Virus record (IMG/VR): IMGVR_UViG_2526164666_000036
Span: 1 to 16,022 of that record
Direction: 5' to 3' (one strand)
DNA length: 16,022 bases
Source: a virus
Taxonomy: Duplodnaviria; Heunggongvirae; Uroviricota; Caudoviricetes
Shown: positions 2,416 through 15,701 of the stretch, piece by piece
Position numbering within the stretch: the first letter of the stretch is position 1
Layout: every line of letters begins with the position of its first letter
Made by a program: the position numbers and the translations under genes
Notes under the pieces: model-generated
Seen by the model: the letters and a program-made list of their open reading frames with translations, nothing else
Database searches by the model: none
Told to the model about the DNA's origin: nothing

Positions 2416-3465
2416 TTACCCGAGCACGCCGGTTGCAAAGGCGTGATCAAGAAAACGAAAAATTAAATCAACCTGGGAACCATGCTTTTCTTCGAACGCC
2501 AGCGGATCCGCATGAAGTTCGTTGTGATGTTCCCGGCACAACGGTAGCGTGAAAATATCGTGGGCCTTTGTTCCCATCCCTCCCTGACCGTGACCAATCA
2601 GGTGATGGGGATCGTCGGCTGGCTGACCACAACACGCACACGGCTGTGTCTTCACCCAGCGCGTATATTTCTCATTTACCCAACGGCGACGTTTAGGTCG
2701 CCTCATGAAAGATTCCGGAGACTCCGGATCAACGGTAACGCTGACCACTGTTTTTTCCTGTAGCGTGGTTTGTTGCTGGTGGACGTGAAGTGGCAGCGCA
2801 ATATTTTTTGTGCGCTGCTTCAGTATGCTGATGGCTGTCTGTTCTCCCGGTACGATGTCACTCTCACGGTATACGGAGCGGATTTTTTCCACCGGTAATC
2901 CCAGCGAACGACGCGCTACTGCCTCAGGTAGTGCATCCACCACCTGATTGCAGGCCGCCCACCAGGATAATTCGGCCAGCGATAACTCCCTCTCCTGCGT
3001 ACCGCTTATTGCGTGACGGATGACGTCAATCATCCAGGCAACCAGATTCTGCTGAGCAAGTTGATCGAGTGATTCTGATGTCTGGTCGCGCAGCTGGTTG
3101 TCACAGTGCCAGCACAACACCATCGCGCCGGCACCGTAACGGTGAATGACTGTTTCGCTGTGATGATAATCGCCGTGTAGCCACTGGCAGGATTTCACGT
3201 GACGTAATAACCAGTCAGACAGTGCACCAGCGCCACCCGCAGCACGGATCACCCGCTCATCGCTGAAAAATGGCAGTAGTGATTTATCTTCCGCCAGCGG
3301 CTGGTGAACGGCAGGTACAACCCCGGACGGCAGAGCTCGCATGCTTTTTGGTTCCGGCTCCACCAGTATTCTGCCGTTATGGAATGCTGACATTGATTCA
3401 CGGCCTGGCTTAACGATAACCAGACCGAGTTCCGGTACCAGAACAGGTCGAAGTAATACCCGCAC
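2416..3465 (-). CDS. DUF968 family prophage protein (YdfU-like) with C-terminal HNH-like Cys/His motif, 349 aa
   Basis: GTG start at 3465 preceded by GGAGG; C-terminus CACCG...DPHHLIGHG...LCREHHNELH resembles a His-Me finger. Length and position (between rusA and hokD) match Qin ydfU as I recall it. Confidence 0.7.
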   Translation of the reverse strand: MRVLLRPVLVPELGLVIVKPGRESMSAFHNGRILVEPEPKSMRALPSGVVPAVHQPLAEDKSLLPFFSDERVIRAAGGAGALSDWLLRHVKSCQWLHGDYHHSETVIHRYGAGAMVLCWHCDNQLRDQTSESLDQLAQQNLVAWMIDVIRHAISGTQERELSLAELSWWAACNQVVDALPEAVARRSLGLPVEKIRSVYRESDIVPGEQTAISILKQRTKNIALPLHVHQQQTTLQEKTVVSVTVDPESPESFMRRPKRRRWVNEKYTRWVKTQPCACCGQPADDPHHLIGHGQGGMGTKAHDIFTLPLCREHHNELHADPLAFEEKHGSQVDLIFRFLDHAFATGVLG

Positions 3466-7966: not shown

Positions 7967-8707
7967 TCAGTTCCTGTGCTGGCTGACGTTCGGACGCCAG
8001 CTCTCCCAGTTAAACGTCACCCAGCGACCACCGTTCATGGACATGCGGTCCATCACCCGCTCGCCGAGAAGTGTATTCATCGCTGCATGGTTAAGATTTG
8101 TCAGCATCCCCACACTGAGTAACGATGCCGTTCTGCGGTCAACAATCTGATTCAGCGTGACCTGCTCATTACGCGTATCCCGTTGCATGCCAATTTCATC
8201 CAGTACCAGCAGGTCAACGCCACACAATCCCTGCAAAAATTTTTCGCCCGAGTTTTTGTTGTCGTAGCTGCCATGTAACGCCAGCATCACATCCGCCACT
8301 GTTATCACAATCACACTGCGACCTTTCGCCAGAAGGTGGTTGCCAATAGCCGCCGCCAGGTGGTTTTTTCCTGTGCCAGGCCTGCCACTGAAAACAAAAT
8401 TCGTACAGCCGCCTTCCAGCTCTGCCGCAATGGATTTCGCCTGACTCAGGGCATGGCGCTGACCATCGTTCTGCACCCGGTAGTTACCGAACGTACACTT
8501 CCGGTGAAGCGGCTGGATACCGGAGCGGTTAATGATTTTTTCAACCCGCGTCTGATGATTCAGACGATTAACCTCCTCGCTTCGCTTACGCCCTTCAGCA
8601 AGCTGCCATTCCCGCCACTCCGCCACCGTACGGTACGGAGGGATTGCATCCTGCGGCACAAATCTGCTGACTCTTGCCAGAACACCACCTGACGTAATGT
8701 TTTTCAT
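7967..8707 (-). CDS. DnaC-like replicative helicase loader (YdaV-like / phage P analogue), 246 aa
   Basis: Walker [16 protein letters not shown] and Walker B LLVLDEIG; immediately downstream of the O-like initiator gene. Confidence 0.85.
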
Positions 8708-8713
8708 GGTGCG

Positions 8714-9682
8714 CTACCCCCTGAAACCCGGCGGAATTTCGGTATCCGGTTCAGAAATATGATTCACGCAACGCTGCGCGGGCGAACGCCCCAGGCGGAT
8801 AACCAGTTCATCCCATTTTTCCCGGAGTTTTGCCGGACTCATGATGTTTTTTACCCAGAACGAATCCCGTTGAACACGCCCAAACATTTCACAAATCTGT
8901 CGGTGACTACGTCCATCCAGCATACGCATCATGCGCACATCATTCGCCCAGGTCGTCCAGTTAGGCTCTCTGGGGCGTGATACCTCCCCATCATCACTGG
9001 CGGCCTGTTCATACAACGCAACAACCCGTCCCCAGATCCACTGTGCACACGTCAAATCCTCCCGGGTTCCCCACTGTCGCTTTGGTACATTCCAGGTATG
9101 CGCATCCGGGTGTTTCTCCAGAAATCGCTCGACCGGTGATGCTTGTTTTTCGTCCGGCAGTGAAACGTCCGGACAAGAAGATCTTTTATCTGACGGATCA
9201 GGTTTTAATACTGACGGATCGGGGTCAATCATCGCCCCCCTAATCGGCAGTTTTTTATCAACAGTTGATCCATCAAAATTTGACGGGTCAACCGTTGAGG
9301 GGTCAATATTTGACGGGTCAACTGTTAACGGGTCATTTTTTGCCGGGCTAATTTTTCTTTTCGGTTTATATGACTCACGCGCCGCCGCCGCAGCTGCTTC
9401 GAGTTTTTCCACATTAAGCCGATAGATATTGCTTACATTACGCCCACCGACCTTACGCTCTTCCTTCGTCAGCCAGCCCTCTTTCGCCAGTTCTGCAATA
9501 GCCGATTTCACTGTGGATTCACTTCTTGCACCGATCTGACGCCGGATAGTTTCAATGGCAGGCCATGACACGCCCTCGTCATTGCTGTAGTCTGCAAGAC
9601 GGGCCATAACCGCCACCCTGGATAAGATCATGCCGGTGAAGGCGCACCCTTCCCAGACAAGACCATGAAGCTTGCTGCTCAT
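8714..9682 (-). CDS. Replication initiator O-like protein (YdaU-like) with N-terminal HTH
   Basis: ATG at 9682 (alternative GTG at 9697); central linker DPLTVDPSNIDPSTVDPSNFDGSTVD is encoded by the DNA iterons, as with ori inside lambda O. Confidence 0.75.
   Translation of the reverse strand: MSSKLHGLVWEGCAFTGMILSRVAVMARLADYSNDEGVSWPAIETIRRQIGARSESTVKSAIAELAKEGWLTKEERKVGGRNVSNIYRLNVEKLEAAAAAARESYKPKRKISPAKNDPLTVDPSNIDPSTVDPSNFDGSTVDKKLPIRGAMIDPDPSVLKPDPSDKRSSCPDVSLPDEKQASPVERFLEKHPDAHTWNVPKRQWGTREDLTCAQWIWGRVVALYEQAASDDGEVSRPREPNWTTWANDVRMMRMLDGRSHRQICEMFGRVQRDSFWVKNIMSPAKLREKWDELVIRLGRSPAQRCVNHISEPDTEIPPGFRG
9190..9340. repeat. Iteron array: candidate prophage replication origin inside the O-like gene
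   Basis: Repeated GACGG(A/G)TC at 9192, 9213, 9281, 9311; palindromic cores TCAACAGTTGA (9257-9267) and TCAACCGTTGA (9287-9297); exact 13-bp repeat TTTGACGGGTCAA 30 bp apart; followed by an AT-rich stretch at 9334-9370. Confidence 0.6.
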
Positions 9683-9704: not shown

Positions 9705-10130
9705 TTAGTGCATCACCACAGCATTCCCTGCCGGGCCGCCGCGATTCATCTGGTCATACAAAACAACCGCTGACGCAACAAAATCATCGACATCCTTCAC
9801 CAGCCGATCCCTCCGTTCGACGATCTCACGGTAATATTCAGAACTGTGGCTGCGCATACGGGCCACCAGCAAAGGCGGCATCGCCTTTTCGATCGCCGGT
9901 AACAGAGCCTGCATTTTTTCAACAGCATCAGGGGTGTCTTTCTCTACCCAGCGGAAAATTTTCTGGGTATTGCGAGCCAGGGCTTCCGGATGGCTGTCGT
10001 CATACAGTTCTGGGAACGTCATACCCAACTCAAAATAAGCCTGGGTTATTCCAGCTGCTGGAACTTTTTCGCCATCAGGACGCGCCCAGGCATTCATCGC
10101 CATGCGGATGTGTTCATGCTTGATTTTCAT
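9705..10130 (-). CDS. YdaT-like protein (CII-position regulator), 141 aa
   Basis: Begins MKIKHEHI; AGGAG SD; directly downstream of, and overlapping by 17 nt, the Cro-like gene, as in Rac ydaS-ydaT. Confidence 0.65.
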   Translation of the reverse strand: MKIKHEHIRMAMNAWARPDGEKVPAAGITQAYFELGMTFPELYDDSHPEALARNTQKIFRWVEKDTPDAVEKMQALLPAIEKAMPPLLVARMRSHSSEYYREIVERRDRLVKDVDDFVASAVVLYDQMNRGGPAGNAVVMH

Positions 10131-10395
10131 GAATCAAGCTCCTAGAAAGTGGTTGTGTTAACGTTTTGGTATCTTCCAGCTCGGGCCAAATATTCATCCA
10201 ATCAAAAGGCCTTAGTTGCTGACGTGTAACTTCACCATTACTGGCTCGCTCAATAAGGACACATAACGATGCCCCTAACACTTGACCTTTACTCAATGCC
10301 TTTCTTAGATAACCGATGCTGGTACCACACTCGCATGCAAACATACGCTGTTCATCTGACGAAAGAGAATTGAGAAATATTCTTAATTCTTCCAT
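10114..10395 (-). CDS. Cro-like HTH regulator (YdaS/DicC family), 93 aa
   Basis: HTH-like FACECGTSIGYLRKALS and IERASNGEV...LRP pattern; AAGGAG SD 5 nt upstream of ATG; divergent from the repressor gene. Confidence 0.7.
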   Translation of the reverse strand: MEELRIFLNSLSSDEQRMFACECGTSIGYLRKALSKGQVLGASLCVLIERASNGEVTRQQLRPFDWMNIWPELEDTKTLTQPLSRSLIHENQA

Positions 10396-10495
10396 AGCTA
10401 CTCCTTAGTAAACACAGCAAAGAATACCCACAGGTAAACAAAAGTCAATACCCACAGGTTGTTTACCTTGCGGTAATCGCATCTATTATTTACCT
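10396..10495. promoter_or_regulatory. Divergent immunity promoter/operator region
   Basis: Direct repeats AATACCCACAGGT at 10423-10435 and 10447-10459, plus TTTACCTATGGA at the repressor ATG. Minus strand carries TTGACT-16-TATTCT for the Cro-like gene. On the plus strand TATTAT (10484-10489) sits 6 nt before the repressor ATG with no SD, implying a leaderless mRNA. Confidence 0.55.
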
Positions 10496-10915
10496 ATGGA
10501 CAAATATGAATTTAGACGACAGCAACTCATCAAAATTCGTGATGAGAAATGCGATGGTAAAGCGGTTAACGTGGCCAGAAAGATCGGGCGCGAGCCTTCT
10601 TATGTATCAAGAATGTTGTACCCAGAGGGGAAAAAGGGAAAAAAACGGATCGCTGATGATATGGTGGAGATTATCGAAGAGTCCTTTGGGTTACCCCGGG
10701 GATGGATGGATGGTATCGTTTCATCATCAACGAACACAGCCTCCAGTTATGAAACAAGGGTTCTAACGCCACGACAACGTATTTTTTTAGATCTCTTAGA
10801 CGAACTGCCAGAAAGTGAAGCGGATAAATTATTAAAAACTCTTGAAGAGAAAAAACAGTATTACAATATGATCTACGAAGAAATCCGTAAAAAGAAAGCA
10901 CAAAACGCATCATAG
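10496..10915 (+). CDS. cI-type prophage repressor (DicA/RacR-like), 139 aa
   Basis: Divergent from the Cro-like gene; N-terminal HTH region; C-terminal LPESEADKLLKTLEEKK resembles the DicA C-terminus as I recall it. Confidence 0.75.
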   Translation: MDKYEFRRQQLIKIRDEKCDGKAVNVARKIGREPSYVSRMLYPEGKKGKKRIADDMVEIIEESFGLPRGWMDGIVSSSTNTASSYETRVLTPRQRIFLDLLDELPESEADKLLKTLEEKKQYYNMIYEEIRKKKAQNAS

Positions 10916-13229: not shown

Positions 13230-15701
13230 ATGAGTAAAGTCTTTATTTGCGCCGCCATTCCGGACGAACAGGCAATAAAAGAAGAGGGCGCAGTTGCTGT
13301 AGCCACTGCCATTGAAGCCGGTGATGAACGCCGCGCCCGTGCCAAATTTACCTGGCAATTCCTGGAGCAATATCCTGCTGCTCAGGACTGCGCTTATAAA
13401 TTTCTTGTCTGCGAAGATAAACCTGGCATGCCCCGCCCTGCTATCGACTCCTGGGATACCGAATATATGCAGGAAAACCGCTGGGATGAGGAATCCGCTT
13501 CCTTTATTCCGGTCGAACCAGAATCCGATCCTATTAACGTCAATTTTGACAAGCTGTCCCTTGAAGTACAGAACGCGGTCCTGGTTAAGTTCGGTACATG
13601 TGAAAACATCACCGTTGATATGGCGATTGACGCGCAGGAATTACTGCAAGAAGACGTGGCTACCTTTGACGGACATATCGTTGAAGCACTGATGAAAACG
13701 CCTGAAATTAACGCTATGTATCCGGAACGCAAACTGTTCGCTATCGGATGGGTTAAACACAAATGTAAGCCGGGTACCAAATGGCCCGAAATTCAGGCTG
13801 AATTACGTAACTGGAAAAAACGGCAGGACGCAGAGCGCAAAGAGACTGGAAAATACACGTCTGTTGTTGATCTTGCCCGCGCCAAAGCCAACCGACAGCA
13901 CACTGAAAACCCAGCAGAAAAAATCCCTCCTGTAACTGCCGCCATTCATCGCGAATACAAGCAGACATGGAAAACCCTGGACAGGGAGCTGGCCTACTAT
14001 CTCTGGCCTGGTGATGCGGATGCCGGAAACATTGACGGCAGCATCCTTCGCTGGGCTAAAAATGAAGTTATCGCCAGAGATCGCGAAGACTGGAAGCGCA
14101 TCTCCGCATCAATGCGCAAACAACCTGATGCGCTTCGCTACAGCCGCCAGACTATTTTTGGCCTTGTCCGTGAACGTCCGATCGACATTCACAAAGACCC
14201 TGTGGCACTGAACAAATACATTACTGAATACCTGACTACAAAGGGCGTGTTTGAAGATGAAGGAAGAAATCAGAGCGCAACTGATACTCTCTCGTCGCCA
14301 GTACCAGAAACTGATGCAGTGGAAACGGCAATTCAGGACAACGAAAAAACCGAATGCAAAGTGGAAGTCGAATCATCTGTAGAGCGTGAGGGGCCGTTCT
14401 ACTTCCTCTTCAGCGACAAGGATGGCGAAAAATACGGTCGTGCAAACAAACTTTCTGGTCTGAATAAGGCGCTGGCTGCAGGGGCTACTGAAATCACGAA
14501 AGAAGAATATTTTGCCCGCAAAAACGGTACATACTCAGGTTCACAACAAAATACTGGTGCATCTGACACGATCGCACAACCGGAGCCGGTAAAAGTTACC
14601 GCTGACGAAGTAAACAAAATTATGCAGGCAGCCAATATCAGCCAGCCTGACGCCGATAAGTTGCTTGCTGTATCACGTGGTGAATTTGTTGCAGGGATTA
14701 GCGACCCGAATGATCCGAAATGGGTGAAGGAGATTGAAACCCGCGATTCAGTGAATCAGAACCAGCAAGAAACGGAACAGAACGACCAGAAAGCGGAACA
14801 AAACAGCCCAAATGCGTTACAAAACGAGCCAGAAACGAAACAATCCGAACCAGTAGTGCAACAGGAACCGGAAAAAGTCTGCACCGCCTGCGGTCAGAGC
14901 GGTGGCGGCAACTGCCCCGATTGTGGCGCTGTCATGGGCAACGCAACATACCAGGAAACATTCGATGAAGAGAATCAGGTTGAAGCTCAGGAGAATGATC
15001 CGGAGGAAATGGAAGGCGCTGAACATCCACACAAGGAGAACACTGGCGGCAATCAGCATCACGCCAGCGATAGTGAAACTGGCGAGGCGGCAGATCCCTT
15101 AATTAAGGTGAATGGTCATCACAATCTCACATCCACCAGCAGAGCGGGGATTCATCTGATGATCGACATTGAAACCATGGGAAAAAATCCCAATGCCGCG
15201 ATTATCTCAATAGGCGCAATATTTTTCGATCCACAAACCGGAGATATGGGACCGGAATTTAGCAAGACCATCGATCTGGATACTGCTGGCGGAGTTATTG
15301 ATCGTGACGTCATTAAATGGTGGCTGAAGCAATCACGTGAAGCGCAGTCTGCCATTCTGACCGATGAAATCCCGTTAGATGATGCACTACTGCAATTGCG
15401 GGAATTTATCGCCGAAAACTCCGGTGAATTTTTTGTTCAGGTCTGGGGAAATGGAGCCAACTTCGACAACGTGATTTTACGCCGTTCATACGAACGGCAG
15501 GGGATCCCCTGCCCCTGGCACTACCACAACGATCGCGATGTACGCACAATCGTTGAGCTAGGGAAAGCCATAGACTTCGATGCCAGAACAGCTATCCCAT
15601 TCGAAGGTGAGCGCCACAATGCACTTGATGACGCCCGTTACCAGGCAAAATACGTTTCAGCTATCTGGCAAAAACTGATCCCGAGTCAGGCTGATTTTTA
15701 A
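13230..15701 (+). CDS. Large prophage protein (YdfE-like N-terminus) with internal zinc ribbon and C-terminal DEDDh (DnaQ-like) 3'-5' exonuclease domain, 823 aa
   Basis: C-terminal motifs MIDIETMG (Exo I), GNGANFDNVIL (Exo II), HNALDDARYQA (Exo III); CTACG...CPDCG ribbon around 14878-14930; Q/E-rich low-complexity linker around 14755-14875. Confidence 0.8.
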   Translation: MSKVFICAAIPDEQAIKEEGAVAVATAIEAGDERRARAKFTWQFLEQYPAAQDCAYKFLVCEDKPGMPRPAIDSWDTEYMQENRWDEESASFIPVEPESDPINVNFDKLSLEVQNAVLVKFGTCENITVDMAIDAQELLQEDVATFDGHIVEALMKTPEINAMYPERKLFAIGWVKHKCKPGTKWPEIQAELRNWKKRQDAERKETGKYTSVVDLARAKANRQHTENPAEKIPPVTAAIHREYKQTWKTLDRELAYYLWPGDADAGNIDGSILRWAKNEVIARDREDWKRISASMRKQPDALRYSRQTIFGLVRERPIDIHKDPVALNKYITEYLTTKGVFEDEGRNQSATDTLSSPVPETDAVETAIQDNEKTECKVEVESSVEREGPFYFLFSDKDGEKYGRANKLSGLNKALAAGATEITKEEYFARKNGTYSGSQQNTGASDTIAQPEPVKVTADEVNKIMQAANISQPDADKLLAVSRGEFVAGISDPNDPKWVKEIETRDSVNQNQQETEQNDQKAEQNSPNALQNEPETKQSEPVVQQEPEKVCTACGQSGGGNCPDCGAVMGNATYQETFDEENQVEAQENDPEEMEGAEHPHKENTGGNQHHASDSETGEAADPLIKVNGHHNLTSTSRAGIHLMIDIETMGKNPNAAIISIGAIFFDPQTGDMGPEFSKTIDLDTAGGVIDRDVIKWWLKQSREAQSAILTDEIPLDDALLQLREFIAENSGEFFVQVWGNGANFDNVILRRSYERQGIPCPWHYHNDRDVRTIVELGKAIDFDARTAIPFEGERHNALDDARYQAKYVSAIWQKLIPSQADF

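Follow-up and report, generated by a model that had tools for sequence, protein, structure and literature searches.

The segment around positions 9150-9370 of the analysed stretch of phage DNA (16,022 nucleotides, referred to as the window) very probably serves a Rac-like lambdoid prophage of Escherichia coli O103 as its vegetative replication origin. As judged from its sequence, it resembles the origin of lambda and lies within its own initiator gene. The repeats, their phasing and excess over chance, the synonymous constraint, the co-variation with the initiator N-domain, the stability minimum and the homology to phi80 were computed directly. From these features we infer the function, an origin of the lambda type whose specificity cassette has been exchanged (for an HTH_36 winged helix with 15-bp iterons) and which would work with a DnaC-type loader. 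Nothing is overturned by this assignment; to a phage biologist, an O-like gene is the expected place for an origin. The element is of the expected kind, and the version with an HTH_36 domain and 15-bp repeats seems not to have been described before. The records inspected carried no origin annotation at this position, and open-access literature searches (iterons, lambdoid phages and HTH initiators, SfII/SfIV, within-gene origins, the iteron string) returned no description of an origin for this initiator family. A paper on non-lambdoid Stx ('Eru') phages was set aside as a source, as it deals with other replication modules.

The features of the region are the following:

7967-8707, minus strand: DnaC-like helicase loader gene, directly downstream of the initiator gene (Pfam, NCBIfam, PHROG)
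8714-9682, minus strand: initiator gene, 322 aa (open reading frame and translation; RefSeq annotation of the identical locus)
8717-8779, minus strand: C-terminal tail, aa 302-322 (...DTEIPPGFRG; likeness to the extreme C-terminus of E. coli DnaT)
8786-9142, minus strand: coding sequence of the helical C-terminal domain, aa 181-299 (BLASTP to phi80 gp15, AF2, PHROG)
9150-9190: conserved 'right arm' and module junction (alignment to phi80 and lambda, allele comparison)
9175-9222: candidate DNA-unwinding element (stability, GATC cluster, conservation, synonymous constraint)
9223-9257: spacer between array and GATC-repeat block, encoding DKKLPIRGAMI and containing a G/C run (sequence)
9258-9334: iteron array of five 15-bp units (phasing, excess over chance, TRF, conservation, codon bias)
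9333-9370: A/T-rich block, 68% AT, encoding the Lys-rich YKPKRKISPAKN (stability rank 19 of 930 40-mers in the gene)
9371-9682, minus strand: coding sequence of the HTH_36 winged-helix N-domain, aa 1-104 (Pfam, AF2, Foldseek)
9705-10130, minus strand: CII/YdaT-like regulator gene, upstream in the operon (Pfam; PHROG 35 and 163, both regulators)
10114-10395, minus strand: Cro/YdaS-like regulator gene, upstream in the operon (Pfam; PHROG 35 and 163, both regulators)
10421-10448, minus strand: putative sigma-70-like promoter, pR analogue (consensus match only)

Initiator protein and neighbouring genes

The initiator is listed in RefSeq as WP_000095674.1, with no annotation beyond 'helix-turn-helix domain-containing protein' despite its wide occurrence. 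It consists of an N-terminal winged helix, a disordered linker (aa 109-179 in the AF2 model) and a helical C-domain, and matched PHROG 391 'replication initiation O-like' over its full length (E=5e-107). An earlier note had treated the gene as O-like. Membership in the lambda O family proper was not borne out, since the N-domain belongs to HTH_36 (PF13730; 27.7 bits, cut-off 25), the only family to pass its threshold and one found in all database relatives. The N-domain gave no match to Phage_rep_O (PF04492), which scored 123 bits with lambda O, 88 bits with phi80 gp15 and 130 bits with P22 gp18. A profile comparison of the N-domain with lambda O by hhalign returned a probability of 0.1%, and the initiator revealed no similarity to P22 gp18.

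The AF2 model of the N-domain comprises four helices followed by a β-hairpin wing (pLDDT 73-87). Foldseek retrieved dimeric winged-helix DNA binders alone; as these are generic regulators with E values of 5e-3 at best, no specific structural relative can be named. The N-domain (aa 1-104) is presumed to confer the specificity of iteron binding. The C-domain, modelled with a pLDDT of 80-93, is presumed to recruit the loader or the helicase. It matched PHROG 2514 and 4880 (DnaD-like / replisome organizer; phrog_2514 'DnaD-like helicase loader' with E=5.5e-26), while Pfam DnaD_N scored 17.2 bits on the initiator, below its cut-off of 27. The tail was similar to DnaT structures (PDB 2ru8, 6aep and 9zbt; E 0.01-0.03) and to NCBIfam DnaT (E 0.004), and its DnaT-like motif is retained in every C-domain type. 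A preprimosome paper of 2026 gives no role to the extreme C-terminus.

The downstream gene was assigned to the helicase loaders by Pfam IstB_IS21 (59 bits), NCBIfam PRK12377 (475 bits), the DnaC equivalog (303 bits) and PHROG 50 'DnaC-like helicase loader'. The regulator genes upstream (9705-10395) are transcribed towards the putative origin, and neither a promoter nor a terminator was found inside the initiator gene.

Iteron array and flanking DNA

Each unit of the array is composed of an 11-bp dyad, TCAA-N3-TTGA, and a 4-bp G/C spacer. The cores are perfect at 9258, 9273, 9288 and 9303 and have one mismatch at 9318, in exact 15-bp phasing; a degenerate sixth unit follows at 9333-9347. Five phased cores compare with 0.04 expected by chance per 90 bp. 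TRF reported a period of 15 bp with 5.2 copies and a 30-bp super-period, and ranked the array as the top-scoring tandem repeat of the window. No second comparable repeat array occurs in these 16 kb, in which the sole other sizeable tandem repeat lies inside an exonuclease gene. The array also has a marked hairpin potential (67 nt, z=-4.66). A sub-threshold Rfam match to a miRNA was dismissed as a chance result of its palindromic nature, so that an RNA element was not retained. A search for DnaA boxes yielded two sites with one mismatch each (9255 and 9405), which are not compelling.

The sequence features described in the earlier note were all found in place and above chance, on evidence that is stronger than first claimed, although some details changed. 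GACGG(A/G)TC, of which at least four copies had been reported, has exactly four matches in the window, all within 9192-9319, versus 0.8 expected. They are split over two elements, with GACGGGTC in the 15-bp array and GACGGATC in a CTGACGGATC(A/G)GG repeat (9190, 9211). The two 11-bp palindromes are real (TCAACNGTTGA, 2 matches versus 0.02 expected) but undercounted, as the relaxed core gives five. The exact direct repeat at 30-bp spacing exists as well (ATTTGACGGGTCAAC at 9278 and 9308) and is 15 bp long rather than 13 bp. The placement in the linker-coding part of the gene was confirmed, with the array occupying gene nt 349-423 (aa 117-141) within the disordered segment. Because this segment is predicted to be a disordered linker, a sequence dictated by the DNA would be tolerable there. 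The repetitive peptide is accounted for as proposed. The array reads in frame as DPLTV-DPSNI-DPSTV-DPSNF-DGSTV, five times D-P-(S/L)-(T/N)-(V/I/F), one pentapeptide for each 15-bp unit.

An A/T-rich block had been said to follow the repeats. The block at 9333-9370 does exist; in the sense of the gene it lies 5' of the array, which is not the conserved side. It is conserved only within the subgroup of the window and missing from the main group of homologues. The unwinding element most likely lies on the opposite side of the array, at 9175-9222 (gene nt 461-508, likewise inside the segment predicted to be disordered). This candidate element contains the two CTGACGGATC(A/G)GG repeats, 21 bp apart in A/T-rich DNA, and the densest cluster of GATC sites in the window (9180, 9196 and 9217). 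The least stable 40-mer of the initiator gene is 9175-9214 (rank 1 of 930 windows, 68% AT), a segment that is conserved in the family and has its homologue in phi80 and lambda. A stability minimum just 3' of the repeats was also observed in lambda O, the positive control, in seven phage homologues and in 65 of 75 family genes, a count of kin and hence of non-independent trials. At 68% AT the minimum is less pronounced than in lambda (78%), and a second block of 68% AT lies on the other side of the array.

The right arm is formed by ATAAAAGATCTTCTTGTCCGGACG on the minus strand together with two copies of CGTCCGG at 15-bp spacing. It aligned as a homologue of AAAAGATC-TTCGTCCG in phi80 and of AAAAGATTATTCGTCAG in lambda. 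Allele comparison placed the start of C-domain swaps just past the arm (...SSCPD), and the misc_recomb marks 39157 and 39165 of lambda fall in the equivalent stretch.

DNA-level constraint, alternative readings and proposed mechanism

The pentads might be only a flexible peptide linker, D-P-S-x-hydrophobic, either selected in the protein or neutral. The DNA periodicity would then be a by-product of tandem duplication without any role in cis. We consider this highly improbable. It would accommodate units of 15 bp, exactly five codons in frame, that code for a segment predicted to be disordered and vary in copy number (2-9, mode 5, in about 75-78 homologues), and identical codons could be inherited through tandem duplication and concerted evolution. 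The earlier note had named absence or variability of the repeats in homologous O-like genes as evidence against an origin. This check favoured the origin, with the repeats present in all 78 distinct intact genes examined, from E. coli to Erwinia, Edwardsiella, Morganella, Yersinia, Proteus, Providencia and Rahnella (Enterobacterales). The codons of these homologues speak against a mere linker. Ser at unit position 3 was encoded by TCN in 366 of 366 units (TCA in 91%) and never by AGY, which makes up about 48% of the Ser codons elsewhere in the same genes; AAA accounted for 99% of array Lys versus 60%. Fourfold-degenerate and other third positions were conserved above first positions, with third codon positions 9, 12 and 15 of the unit being more informative than first position 4. 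The encoded peptide is not conserved (DPSNI, DPPTV, EGLTV, DASKS), whereas the half-sites of the DNA core YYAA-N3-YTGA persist. Concerted evolution inflates codon identity within an array but not between genera, and identical array codons recur across genera whose N-domains share just 54-78% identity.

The non-repetitive block 3' of the array was equally frozen at synonymous sites. Its codon homozygosity was 0.85, compared to 0.42 in the N-domain (51 de-replicated genes, Mann-Whitney p=4e-10), with codon counts of GAT 51/51, TCA 45/45, GTA 46/47 and GAT 47/47 and two fixed GATC sites. In these sequences the DNA is thus under more constraint than its protein product would require. Three N-domain clades correspond to three repeat types. 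Alleles with an mEp460-type N-domain (L006, L007, L172) carry 4-6 copies of ATCrGGTCAAAATG in the same gene position, spaced by 23/24 bp; a spacing of 23 bp is out of frame, which marks them as DNA repeats. The array remained unchanged when the same N-domain was combined with other immunity genes. It differed when a C-domain of the same type was joined to another N-domain, even in L172, where the module around the mEp460-type N-domain is Rac-like and includes a DnaC-like gene, as in the window. A repeat type that changes with the N-domain and is out of frame in sister alleles argues for DNA signals rather than peptide repeats. The odd pentapeptide repeat would thus be explained as DNA signals read out in frame.

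Synonymous constraint indicates a function of DNA or RNA without telling which, and so the array could bind protein while the true origin is located elsewhere in the prophage. Autoregulation of the initiator or copy control ('handcuffing'), sites for other phage or host proteins and a recombination hotspot for module exchange are options of this kind. The clustering of module junctions beside the block and the possibility of a strong hairpin or cruciform in the array would suit them. We nevertheless rate a non-origin array as unlikely. Dyads, stability minimum, arm and loader-interaction domain follow each other in a lambda-like order, at the gene position used in lambda, phi80 and P22, and the repeats co-vary with the initiator N-domain instead of immunity genes or the loader. 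The 16 kb offer no other comparable repeat array, and searches detected neither an Rfam family nor an internal promoter.

There is a somewhat greater, still minor chance that the element is an origin by descent only, a fossil that, like its initiator, has ceased to fire in this strain. Cryptic Rac-like prophages are common in E. coli. The prophage adjoins rspB in the chromosome, shows a reduced set of visible genes and may be defective. A related 16-kb circular record, pZ1322PEC0161-2, carries the cassette without an annotated plasmid Rep, and its initiator is frameshifted, with 1 nt missing from a C-run (either a sequencing error or a sign of a pseudogene); due to this frameshift the record is unusable as a 'lambda-dv-like' proof of an origin. 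In the window, by contrast, initiator, DnaC-like gene, upstream regulators and array are all intact. Among 5,426 complete E. coli genomes, approximately 1,500 have kept the cassette with very few indels, and O103, O26 and O145 STEC are among them. Temperate phages of Shigella, Klebsiella and Citrobacter carry it too, as do prophages across the Enterobacterales, and relatives are known from phages whose genomes were deposited as complete (SfII, SfIV, mEp460, Klebsiella phages, phiNP). These relatives emerged from protein-level searches; megablast against phages detected only 60-bp matches at the 3' end of the initiator gene.

For a lambda-like origin every computational prediction held: constraint, N-domain co-variation, a stability minimum on the 3' side, homology to phi80 and position in the gene. 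On this basis we infer protein binding, unwinding, helicase loading, methylation control and continued firing of this prophage copy. Upon derepression, the operon of cro-like, cII-like, initiator and DnaC-like genes would be transcribed from the promoter at about 10421-10448 through the origin. Dimers of the initiator would bind the five phased TCAA-N3-TTGA dyads (9258-9334) by their N-terminal winged helices. With sites just 15 bp apart, neighbouring dimers are proposed to sit on nearly opposite faces of the helix in a compact nucleoprotein array. This array may strain the adjoining least stable segment (9175-9222) with its two conserved GATC repeats, whereupon the phi80-gp15-type C-domain and the DnaT-like tail could bring in DnaB via the phage DnaC-like loader. 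With 21 bp, or two helical turns, between them, the paired GATC sites probably subject firing to Dam/SeqA control.

A further idea, which we regard as doubtful, is that HTH_36-type phage initiators recognize their origins in a distinct way and form a mechanistically new sub-class of lambdoid origins, not a simple swap of specificity. Back-to-back dyads of 11-13 bp with a phasing of 15 bp (~1.4 turns) would then force a continuous, face-alternating protein array, coupled to the unwinding element, in which the two invariant GATC sites (21-24 bp apart) would make firing Dam/SeqA-dependent (several relatives have a Dam gene of their own beside the initiator), and the conserved DnaT-like tail would plug the initiator straight into the host DnaT/DnaC primosome route.

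The candidate origin provides a precise cis element for studies of prophage induction and copy number in pathogenic E. coli. It is also a candidate part for replicons, compact at ~220 bp and equipped with an orthogonal initiator. As a natural case of swapped origin-specificity cassettes it appears clean, with the right arm and C-domain of phi80 next to an unrelated N-domain and unrelated iterons.

Comparison with known replication systems

In lambda, as in the Stx phages 933W and P27, the middle of the initiator gene holds the origin, in the part that separates the N-domain, which binds DNA, from the C-domain, which binds the loader; the candidate origin of the window is placed alike. In both lambda and the window several dyad iterons come first in the direction of transcription, then the least stable A/T-rich DNA of the gene and then a conserved arm, AAAAGAT...TTCGTC. 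The array of the window begins at gene nt 349, the annotated iterons of lambda at nt 349, the annotated gp15 sites of phi80 at nt 365 and the annotated P22 origin at nt 353. Extra or missing iterons in a lambda-type gene add or remove residues of the protein, and between lambda and Stx phages the array varies by whole iterons (PMC7466680, a study that also applied synonymous recoding to P27). The same is true for the family of the window, in which rare E. coli alleles are longer or shorter by exactly one unit of either 15 bp or 21 bp. The differences concern the N-domain (HTH_36 versus Phage_rep_O, with no detectable homology), the iterons (11-bp dyads spaced by 15 bp in frame versus annotated sites of 18 bp spaced by 20-24 bp), the unwinding region (68% AT with GATC repeats versus 78% AT) and the partner protein (a DnaC-type AAA+ loader versus lambda P). 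The 15-bp spacing is atypical also in comparison with phi80 (20-21 bp) and the sister allele (23 bp), and two dyad registers are candidates for the putative binding unit, TCAA-N3-TTGA or TTGA-N4-TCAA.

The C-domain of phi80 gp15 is homologous to that of the window (BLASTP, 35% identity over 123 aa, E=2e-25). Its record annotates four gp15-binding sites at nt 365-441, a position equivalent to the array, and the DNA just 3' of the iterons is near-identical in places (CAGTATTAAAAGATC-TTCGTCCG in phi80, CAGATAAAAGATCTTCTTGTCCG in the window). The N-domain of gp15, in contrast, is Phage_rep_O, its iterons are unrelated (GGAAA...TTCCC type, 20-21-bp spacing), and its partner gp14 is lambda-P-like, unlike the DnaC-like loader of the window.

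The mEp460-type allele (phages mEp460_ev081 and mEp460_4F5, E. coli prophage L172) shares the C-domain and the junction ...RP[DE]ASQPD with the window, and its repeats and A/T-rich block occupy the same gene segment. The N-domain differs (a global alignment of the first 100 aa gives 28% identity), and the A/T-rich block consists of ACAGAGAAT-type repeats without GATCCGTCAG elements. The proteins annotated as 'replication protein O / primosomal protein I' (PHROG 391) in SfII, SfIV, phiNP, LLS and Klebsiella phages belong to the family of the window, with about 52% identity. Their genes contain a 15-bp in-frame array in the same place with the core TCAA-N3-YTGA and share the block of two GATCCGTCAG elements. 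The unit consensus is GACGCGTCAAAATCT (D[APT]SKS) in SfII-type phages and GACCCGTCAAATATT / GACCCCTCAACGGTT in the window. The SfII-type genes do not possess the Lys-rich A/T block that the window has 5' of the array. Unlike in the window, a DnaC-like gene followed the initiator in none of the eight phage loci inspected. A Dam methylase gene was located beside the initiator, or one small ORF further, in six of these eight loci.

The Rac prophage of K-12 was rejected as a reference, since its YdaU is a DUF1376 protein of a different initiator family and the oriJ literature is therefore not transferable; nothing usable was found in it. A plasmid iteron replicon of the Rep_3 or RepA-pi-RepE type was rejected as well, given the lack of a Rep_3 Pfam match, the period of 15 bp and the location of the array inside the gene. 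Plasmid iterons measure 17-22 bp with a phasing of ~22 bp and lie outside the rep gene, and their initiators are of the Rep_3/WH1-WH2 type. In P1 oriR and at the 13-mers of oriC, repeated initiator sites adjoin an A/T-rich region with GATC-containing short repeats. The window resembles iteron plasmids (P1 oriR, pSC101, R6K, F) and oriC-type elements in this respect, with its repeats placed beside A/T-rich DNA that bears GATC sites.

The prophage and its early region

The window is identical in sequence to a chromosomal prophage in E. coli O103 strain RM8385 (NZ_CP028112.1). The prophage adjoins rspB, and its early region is Rac-like.

Genes of the early region
plus strand: int, xis, RecE-like exonuclease, dicB and then a 139-aa regulator (10496-10915)
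13230-15701, plus strand: RecE-like exonuclease gene, 823 aa
10114-10395, minus strand: Cro/YdaS-like gene, first of the operon
9705-10130, minus strand: CII/YdaT-like gene, same operon
8714-9682, minus strand: 322-aa 'helix-turn-helix domain-containing protein' (the initiator), same operon
7967-8707, minus strand: DnaC-like AAA+ loader gene, same operon, after the initiator
minus strand, past the DnaC-like gene: continuation of the operon with DUF1627, DUF977 and, more distally, RusA and Q

The K-12 Rac prophage was rejected as a reference for the 322-aa protein, since its YdaU belongs to a different family (DUF1376). A loader gene follows the initiator in the window and in other Rac-like E. 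coli prophages, while none of DnaC-like or lambda-P-like type was found at this place in the eight phage relatives inspected (SfIV, 733R5, Klebsiella phage 1 LV-2017, two mEp460 phages, phiNP, LLS and ST101-KPC2phi6.3). These eight presumably use host DnaC, or their initiator recruits DnaB by another route. The exonuclease gene contains an imperfect 21-bp (7-codon) tandem repeat at 14753-14843 on the plus strand (4.3 copies, consensus GAAACAAAACGAGCCAGAAAC, 68% matches with indels), which probably represents a repetitive linker of the exonuclease.

The repeat array and the GATC block

The region formed by a repeat array and an adjoining GATC block within the initiator gene is very likely a replication origin. 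The earlier note had quoted the strand opposite to the gene and had listed at least four copies of GACGGRTC, two 11-bp palindromes and an exact 13-bp direct repeat at 30-bp spacing. Exactly four copies of GACGGRTC are present in the window, all within 9192-9319 (0.8 expected), and the palindrome TCAACNGTTGA was found twice (0.02 expected); the direct repeat and its spacing are real, but its length is 15 bp (ATTTGACGGGTCAAC at 9278 and 9308). The top-scoring tandem repeat of the window is an array with a 15-bp period at 9258-9334, each unit comprising an 11-bp dyad TCAA-N3-TTGA and a 4-bp G/C spacer. Perfect cores are located at 9258, 9273, 9288 and 9303 and a core with one mismatch at 9318, against an expectation of 0.04 per 90 bp. 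The central triplets are by turns A/T-only and G/C-containing, which produces a 30-bp super-period. Owing to the alternating orientation of its half-sites, the array is also an imperfect palindrome (9260-9326, 33-nt arms, centre 9293), and as single-stranded DNA it can fold into a hairpin of 67 nt (-16.9 kcal/mol, z=-4.66). The hairpin is a by-product of the alternating half-sites, and it might favour cruciform extrusion.

Translated from the coding strand, the units (GAC CCG TCA AAT ATT and variants) are in frame and give DPLTV-DPSNI-DPSTV-DPSNF-DGSTV, which accounts for the DPS(N/T)VD-like peptide pointed out previously. Homologues were compared with regard to a DNA signal versus a peptide repeat. 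The set drew on annotated phages (SfII, SfIV, mEp460, Klebsiella phages, Citrobacter phiNP, LLS). Enterobacterales were sampled with one genome per species, which gave 80 loci whose N-domains are 54-78% identical, and 80 near-identical viral contigs of E. coli were added. The array stands straight after the N-domain in each of the 78 distinct intact genes, in 2-9 copies with a mode of 5, so that the absence of the repeats from homologues, named by the earlier note as evidence against an origin, was not observed. A conserved block follows the array (...FDPSESGGDPSV.S..DPSDKK.SCP). Serine at unit position 3 is encoded by TCN in 366/366 units (TCA in 91%), whereas AGY makes up ~48% of the serine codons elsewhere in the same genes; the unit lysine codon is AAA in 99% of cases versus 60% elsewhere. 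The information content of third codon positions 9, 12 and 15 (1.07-1.52 bits) exceeds that of first position 4 (0.61 bits), which is the opposite of protein-level selection. The peptide itself drifts over a constant core YYAA-N3-YTGA: the window's subgroup shows DPSNI, DPPTV, EGLTV and EGSTI, the main group D[APT]SKS. For the non-repetitive block on the 3' side of the array, 51 de-replicated genes gave a codon homozygosity of 0.85, versus 0.42 for their N-domain (Mann-Whitney p=4e-10). Codon choice, positional information, peptide drift over a fixed core and the frozen 3' block thus demonstrate that selection acts at the DNA level in the array and in the block 3' of it.

A second element, CTGACGGATC(A/G)GG, accounts for the GACGGATC copies; it is present at 9190 and 9211, 21 bp apart, where GATC sites (9180, 9196, 9217 and 9267) cluster more densely than anywhere else in the window. 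Codons of this block are nearly invariant among the 51 de-replicated genes (GAT 51/51, TCA 45/45, GTA 46/47, GAT 47/47, TCA 42/42), and two GATC sites are therefore fixed family-wide, with aspartate always encoded by GAT and followed by CCN. The pair is 21 bp apart in the window and 24 bp in relatives. A Dam-type adenine methylase gene adjoins the initiator or lies one small ORF beyond it in six of the eight phage relatives inspected (loci L004, L005, L007, L008, L009 and L010). Dam/SeqA control is known for oriC and P1 oriR; by analogy, the invariant sites and the nearby Dam genes suggest a methylation- or SeqA-linked control of origin firing.

Other functions of the locus were considered as well. 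No Rfam family was found at the array, the sole match being a sub-threshold chance hit to mir-250 caused by the palindrome. Neither promoter- nor terminator-like sites were found inside the initiator gene; the only sigma-70-like sites are two divergent ones ahead of the operon (10421-10489), and transcription would therefore cross the origin, as in lambda. Matches to the DnaA box were weak. The same initiator cassette is present on pZ1322PEC0161-2 (NZ_CP148542.1), a 15,977-bp circle in a complete E. coli genome which contains lambdoid prophage genes alone (repressor, cro, initiator cassette, DnaC-like, DUF1627, DUF977, RusA, Q, holin and lysozyme) and bears no plasmid Rep annotation or replicon type. 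This gene content hints at replicon competence, but the initiator is frameshifted there by a 1-nt deletion in a C-run, and the circle looks like a lambda-dv-like element or an assembly artefact.

Architecture and modularity of the probable origin

Stability was calculated for 40-mers along the whole gene, with lambda O as positive control. In lambda, four iterons are annotated at gene O nt 349-433, and the least stable 40-mer follows directly 3' of them at nt 437-476. The corresponding minimum of the window gene (nt 469-508, window 9175-9214; first among 930 40-mers of the gene and in the 97th percentile window-wide) lies 3' of the array over the GATC repeats. It has the same placement in 7/7 phage homologues tested, including mEp460-type alleles with unrelated sequence there, and in 65/75 family genes versus ~6% chance per gene, although these genes are related and the trials not independent. 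The AT-rich block that the earlier note had placed after the repeats exists (9333-9370, 68% AT), but it ranks 19th, is located 5' of the array with respect to the gene and is limited to the subgroup of the window; the predicted unwinding side is the opposite one, 9175-9214.

The name 'Replication protein 15' in a database pointed to gene 15 of phage phi80, whose N-domain is Phage_rep_O as in lambda O and P22 gp18, and in which four gp15-binding sites are annotated at gene nt 365-441. The C-domains of the window protein and phi80 gp15 share 35% identity over 123 aa (E=2e-25). Directly past the gp15 sites, phi80 DNA (CAGTATTAAAAGATC-TTCGTCCG) matches CAGATAAAAGATCTTCTTGTCCG of the window and aligns with lambda AAAAGATTATTCGTCAG, a stretch in which the lambda record marks recombination points. 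The unwinding side and right arm (9150-9190) of the window are thus homologous to the right arm of the phi80/lambda ori, and N-domain and iterons probably constitute a swapped specificity cassette. The array starts at gene nt 349, as do the lambda iterons, and the annotated P22 origin at nt 353. The succession of dyad array, stability minimum and phi80/lambda-like right arm agrees with the lambda-ori architecture initially proposed.

An unrelated N-domain is joined to the same type of C-domain in mEp460_ev081, mEp460_4F5 and E. coli prophage L172, the latter additionally with YdaS/YdaT-type and DnaC-like genes.

Sister initiator alleles
L172 (E. coli JNEC-KY180): 2500-3465, minus strand
L006 (homologous locus, mEp460-type): 1369-2334
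L007 (homologous locus, mEp460-type): 1450-2430

These carry ATCrGGTCAAAATG in 4-6 copies at the same gene position, strictly spaced by 23/24 bp, and next to them on the 3' side an unrelated A/T-rich block with ACAGAGAAT-type repeats. Because of the 23-bp period the copies cannot be a peptide repeat, and they represent a second iteron set, apparently undescribed. Alleles with the window-type N-domain retain the window's array despite a swapped C-domain (junction directly after ...SSCPD) or other immunity genes. In rare E. coli alleles the difference amounts to exactly a single 15-bp unit or a single 21-bp GATC unit, which resembles lambda versus the Stx phages, where whole iterons make the difference and add 13 residues to O (PMC7466680). 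The cassette/C-domain junctions (window 9150-9175 and equivalents in the homologous loci L003-L010, L172 and L173) fall within a few codons past the conserved TCTTGTCCGGAC (...SSCPD / ...RPDASQPD), the same stretch as the misc_recomb points of the lambda record. A module-exchange hotspot appears to be common to the right edges of lambdoid origins.

The initiator and a proposed mechanism

The designation 'O-like' holds for the PHROGs class ('replication initiation O-like', phrog_391, E=5e-107) but not for membership in the lambda O family; no homology to lambda O was detectable. Pfam recognized the HTH_36 winged helix alone (aa 25-71). In an AF2 model from 38 family members, aa 1-104 form a winged helix and aa 181-299 a helical C-domain, both predicted with confidence, and aa 109-179 are a disordered segment. 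The latter is encoded by the gene part bearing the array and GATC block, in line with the linker position claimed by the earlier note, and a DNA-dictated sequence is therefore tolerable there. Foldseek retrieved only generic dimeric winged-helix DNA binders (MarR, PadR and ArsR types, best E 5e-3); these model-based matches would fit dimers on dyad sites and name no specific relative. The tail (aa 302-322, 8717-8779, minus strand, HISEPDTEIPPGFRG) is similar to the C-terminal end of DnaT/primosomal protein I from E. coli (PDB 2ru8, 6aep and 9zbt, E 0.01-0.03; NCBIfam DnaT, E 0.004), and this similarity is the reason why phage records use the annotation 'primosomal protein I'. All C-domain types of the family share the tail motif D[YT]x(x)[IL]Px(x)GFR[GST]. 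A 2026 preprimosome paper assigned no role to the extreme C-terminus. The initiator and DnaC-like gene pair resembles the chromosomal dnaT-dnaC pair.

From these features we infer initiator binding, unwinding and helicase loading. Initiator dimers would occupy the five phased dyads, under the strain of the complex the neighbouring least-stable segment 9175-9222 would open, and the phi80-type C-domain with its DnaT-like tail would recruit DnaB via the adjacent DnaC-like loader.

We found no description of this origin type in the open-access literature, though an earlier one is possible. A lambda-type origin inside such a gene will not surprise the specialist; the origin is widespread yet unannotated, and its definition is useful. 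The evidence supports a lambda-type origin that forms a new specificity class, a mosaic of HTH_36 N-domain and 15-bp in-frame dyad iterons, phi80-type right arm and C-domain, and DnaC-type loader. The 15-bp spacing would set neighbouring dimers ~154 degrees apart around the helix, so that a compact, face-alternating array is expected, in contrast to the 2-turn-phased O-some of lambda.
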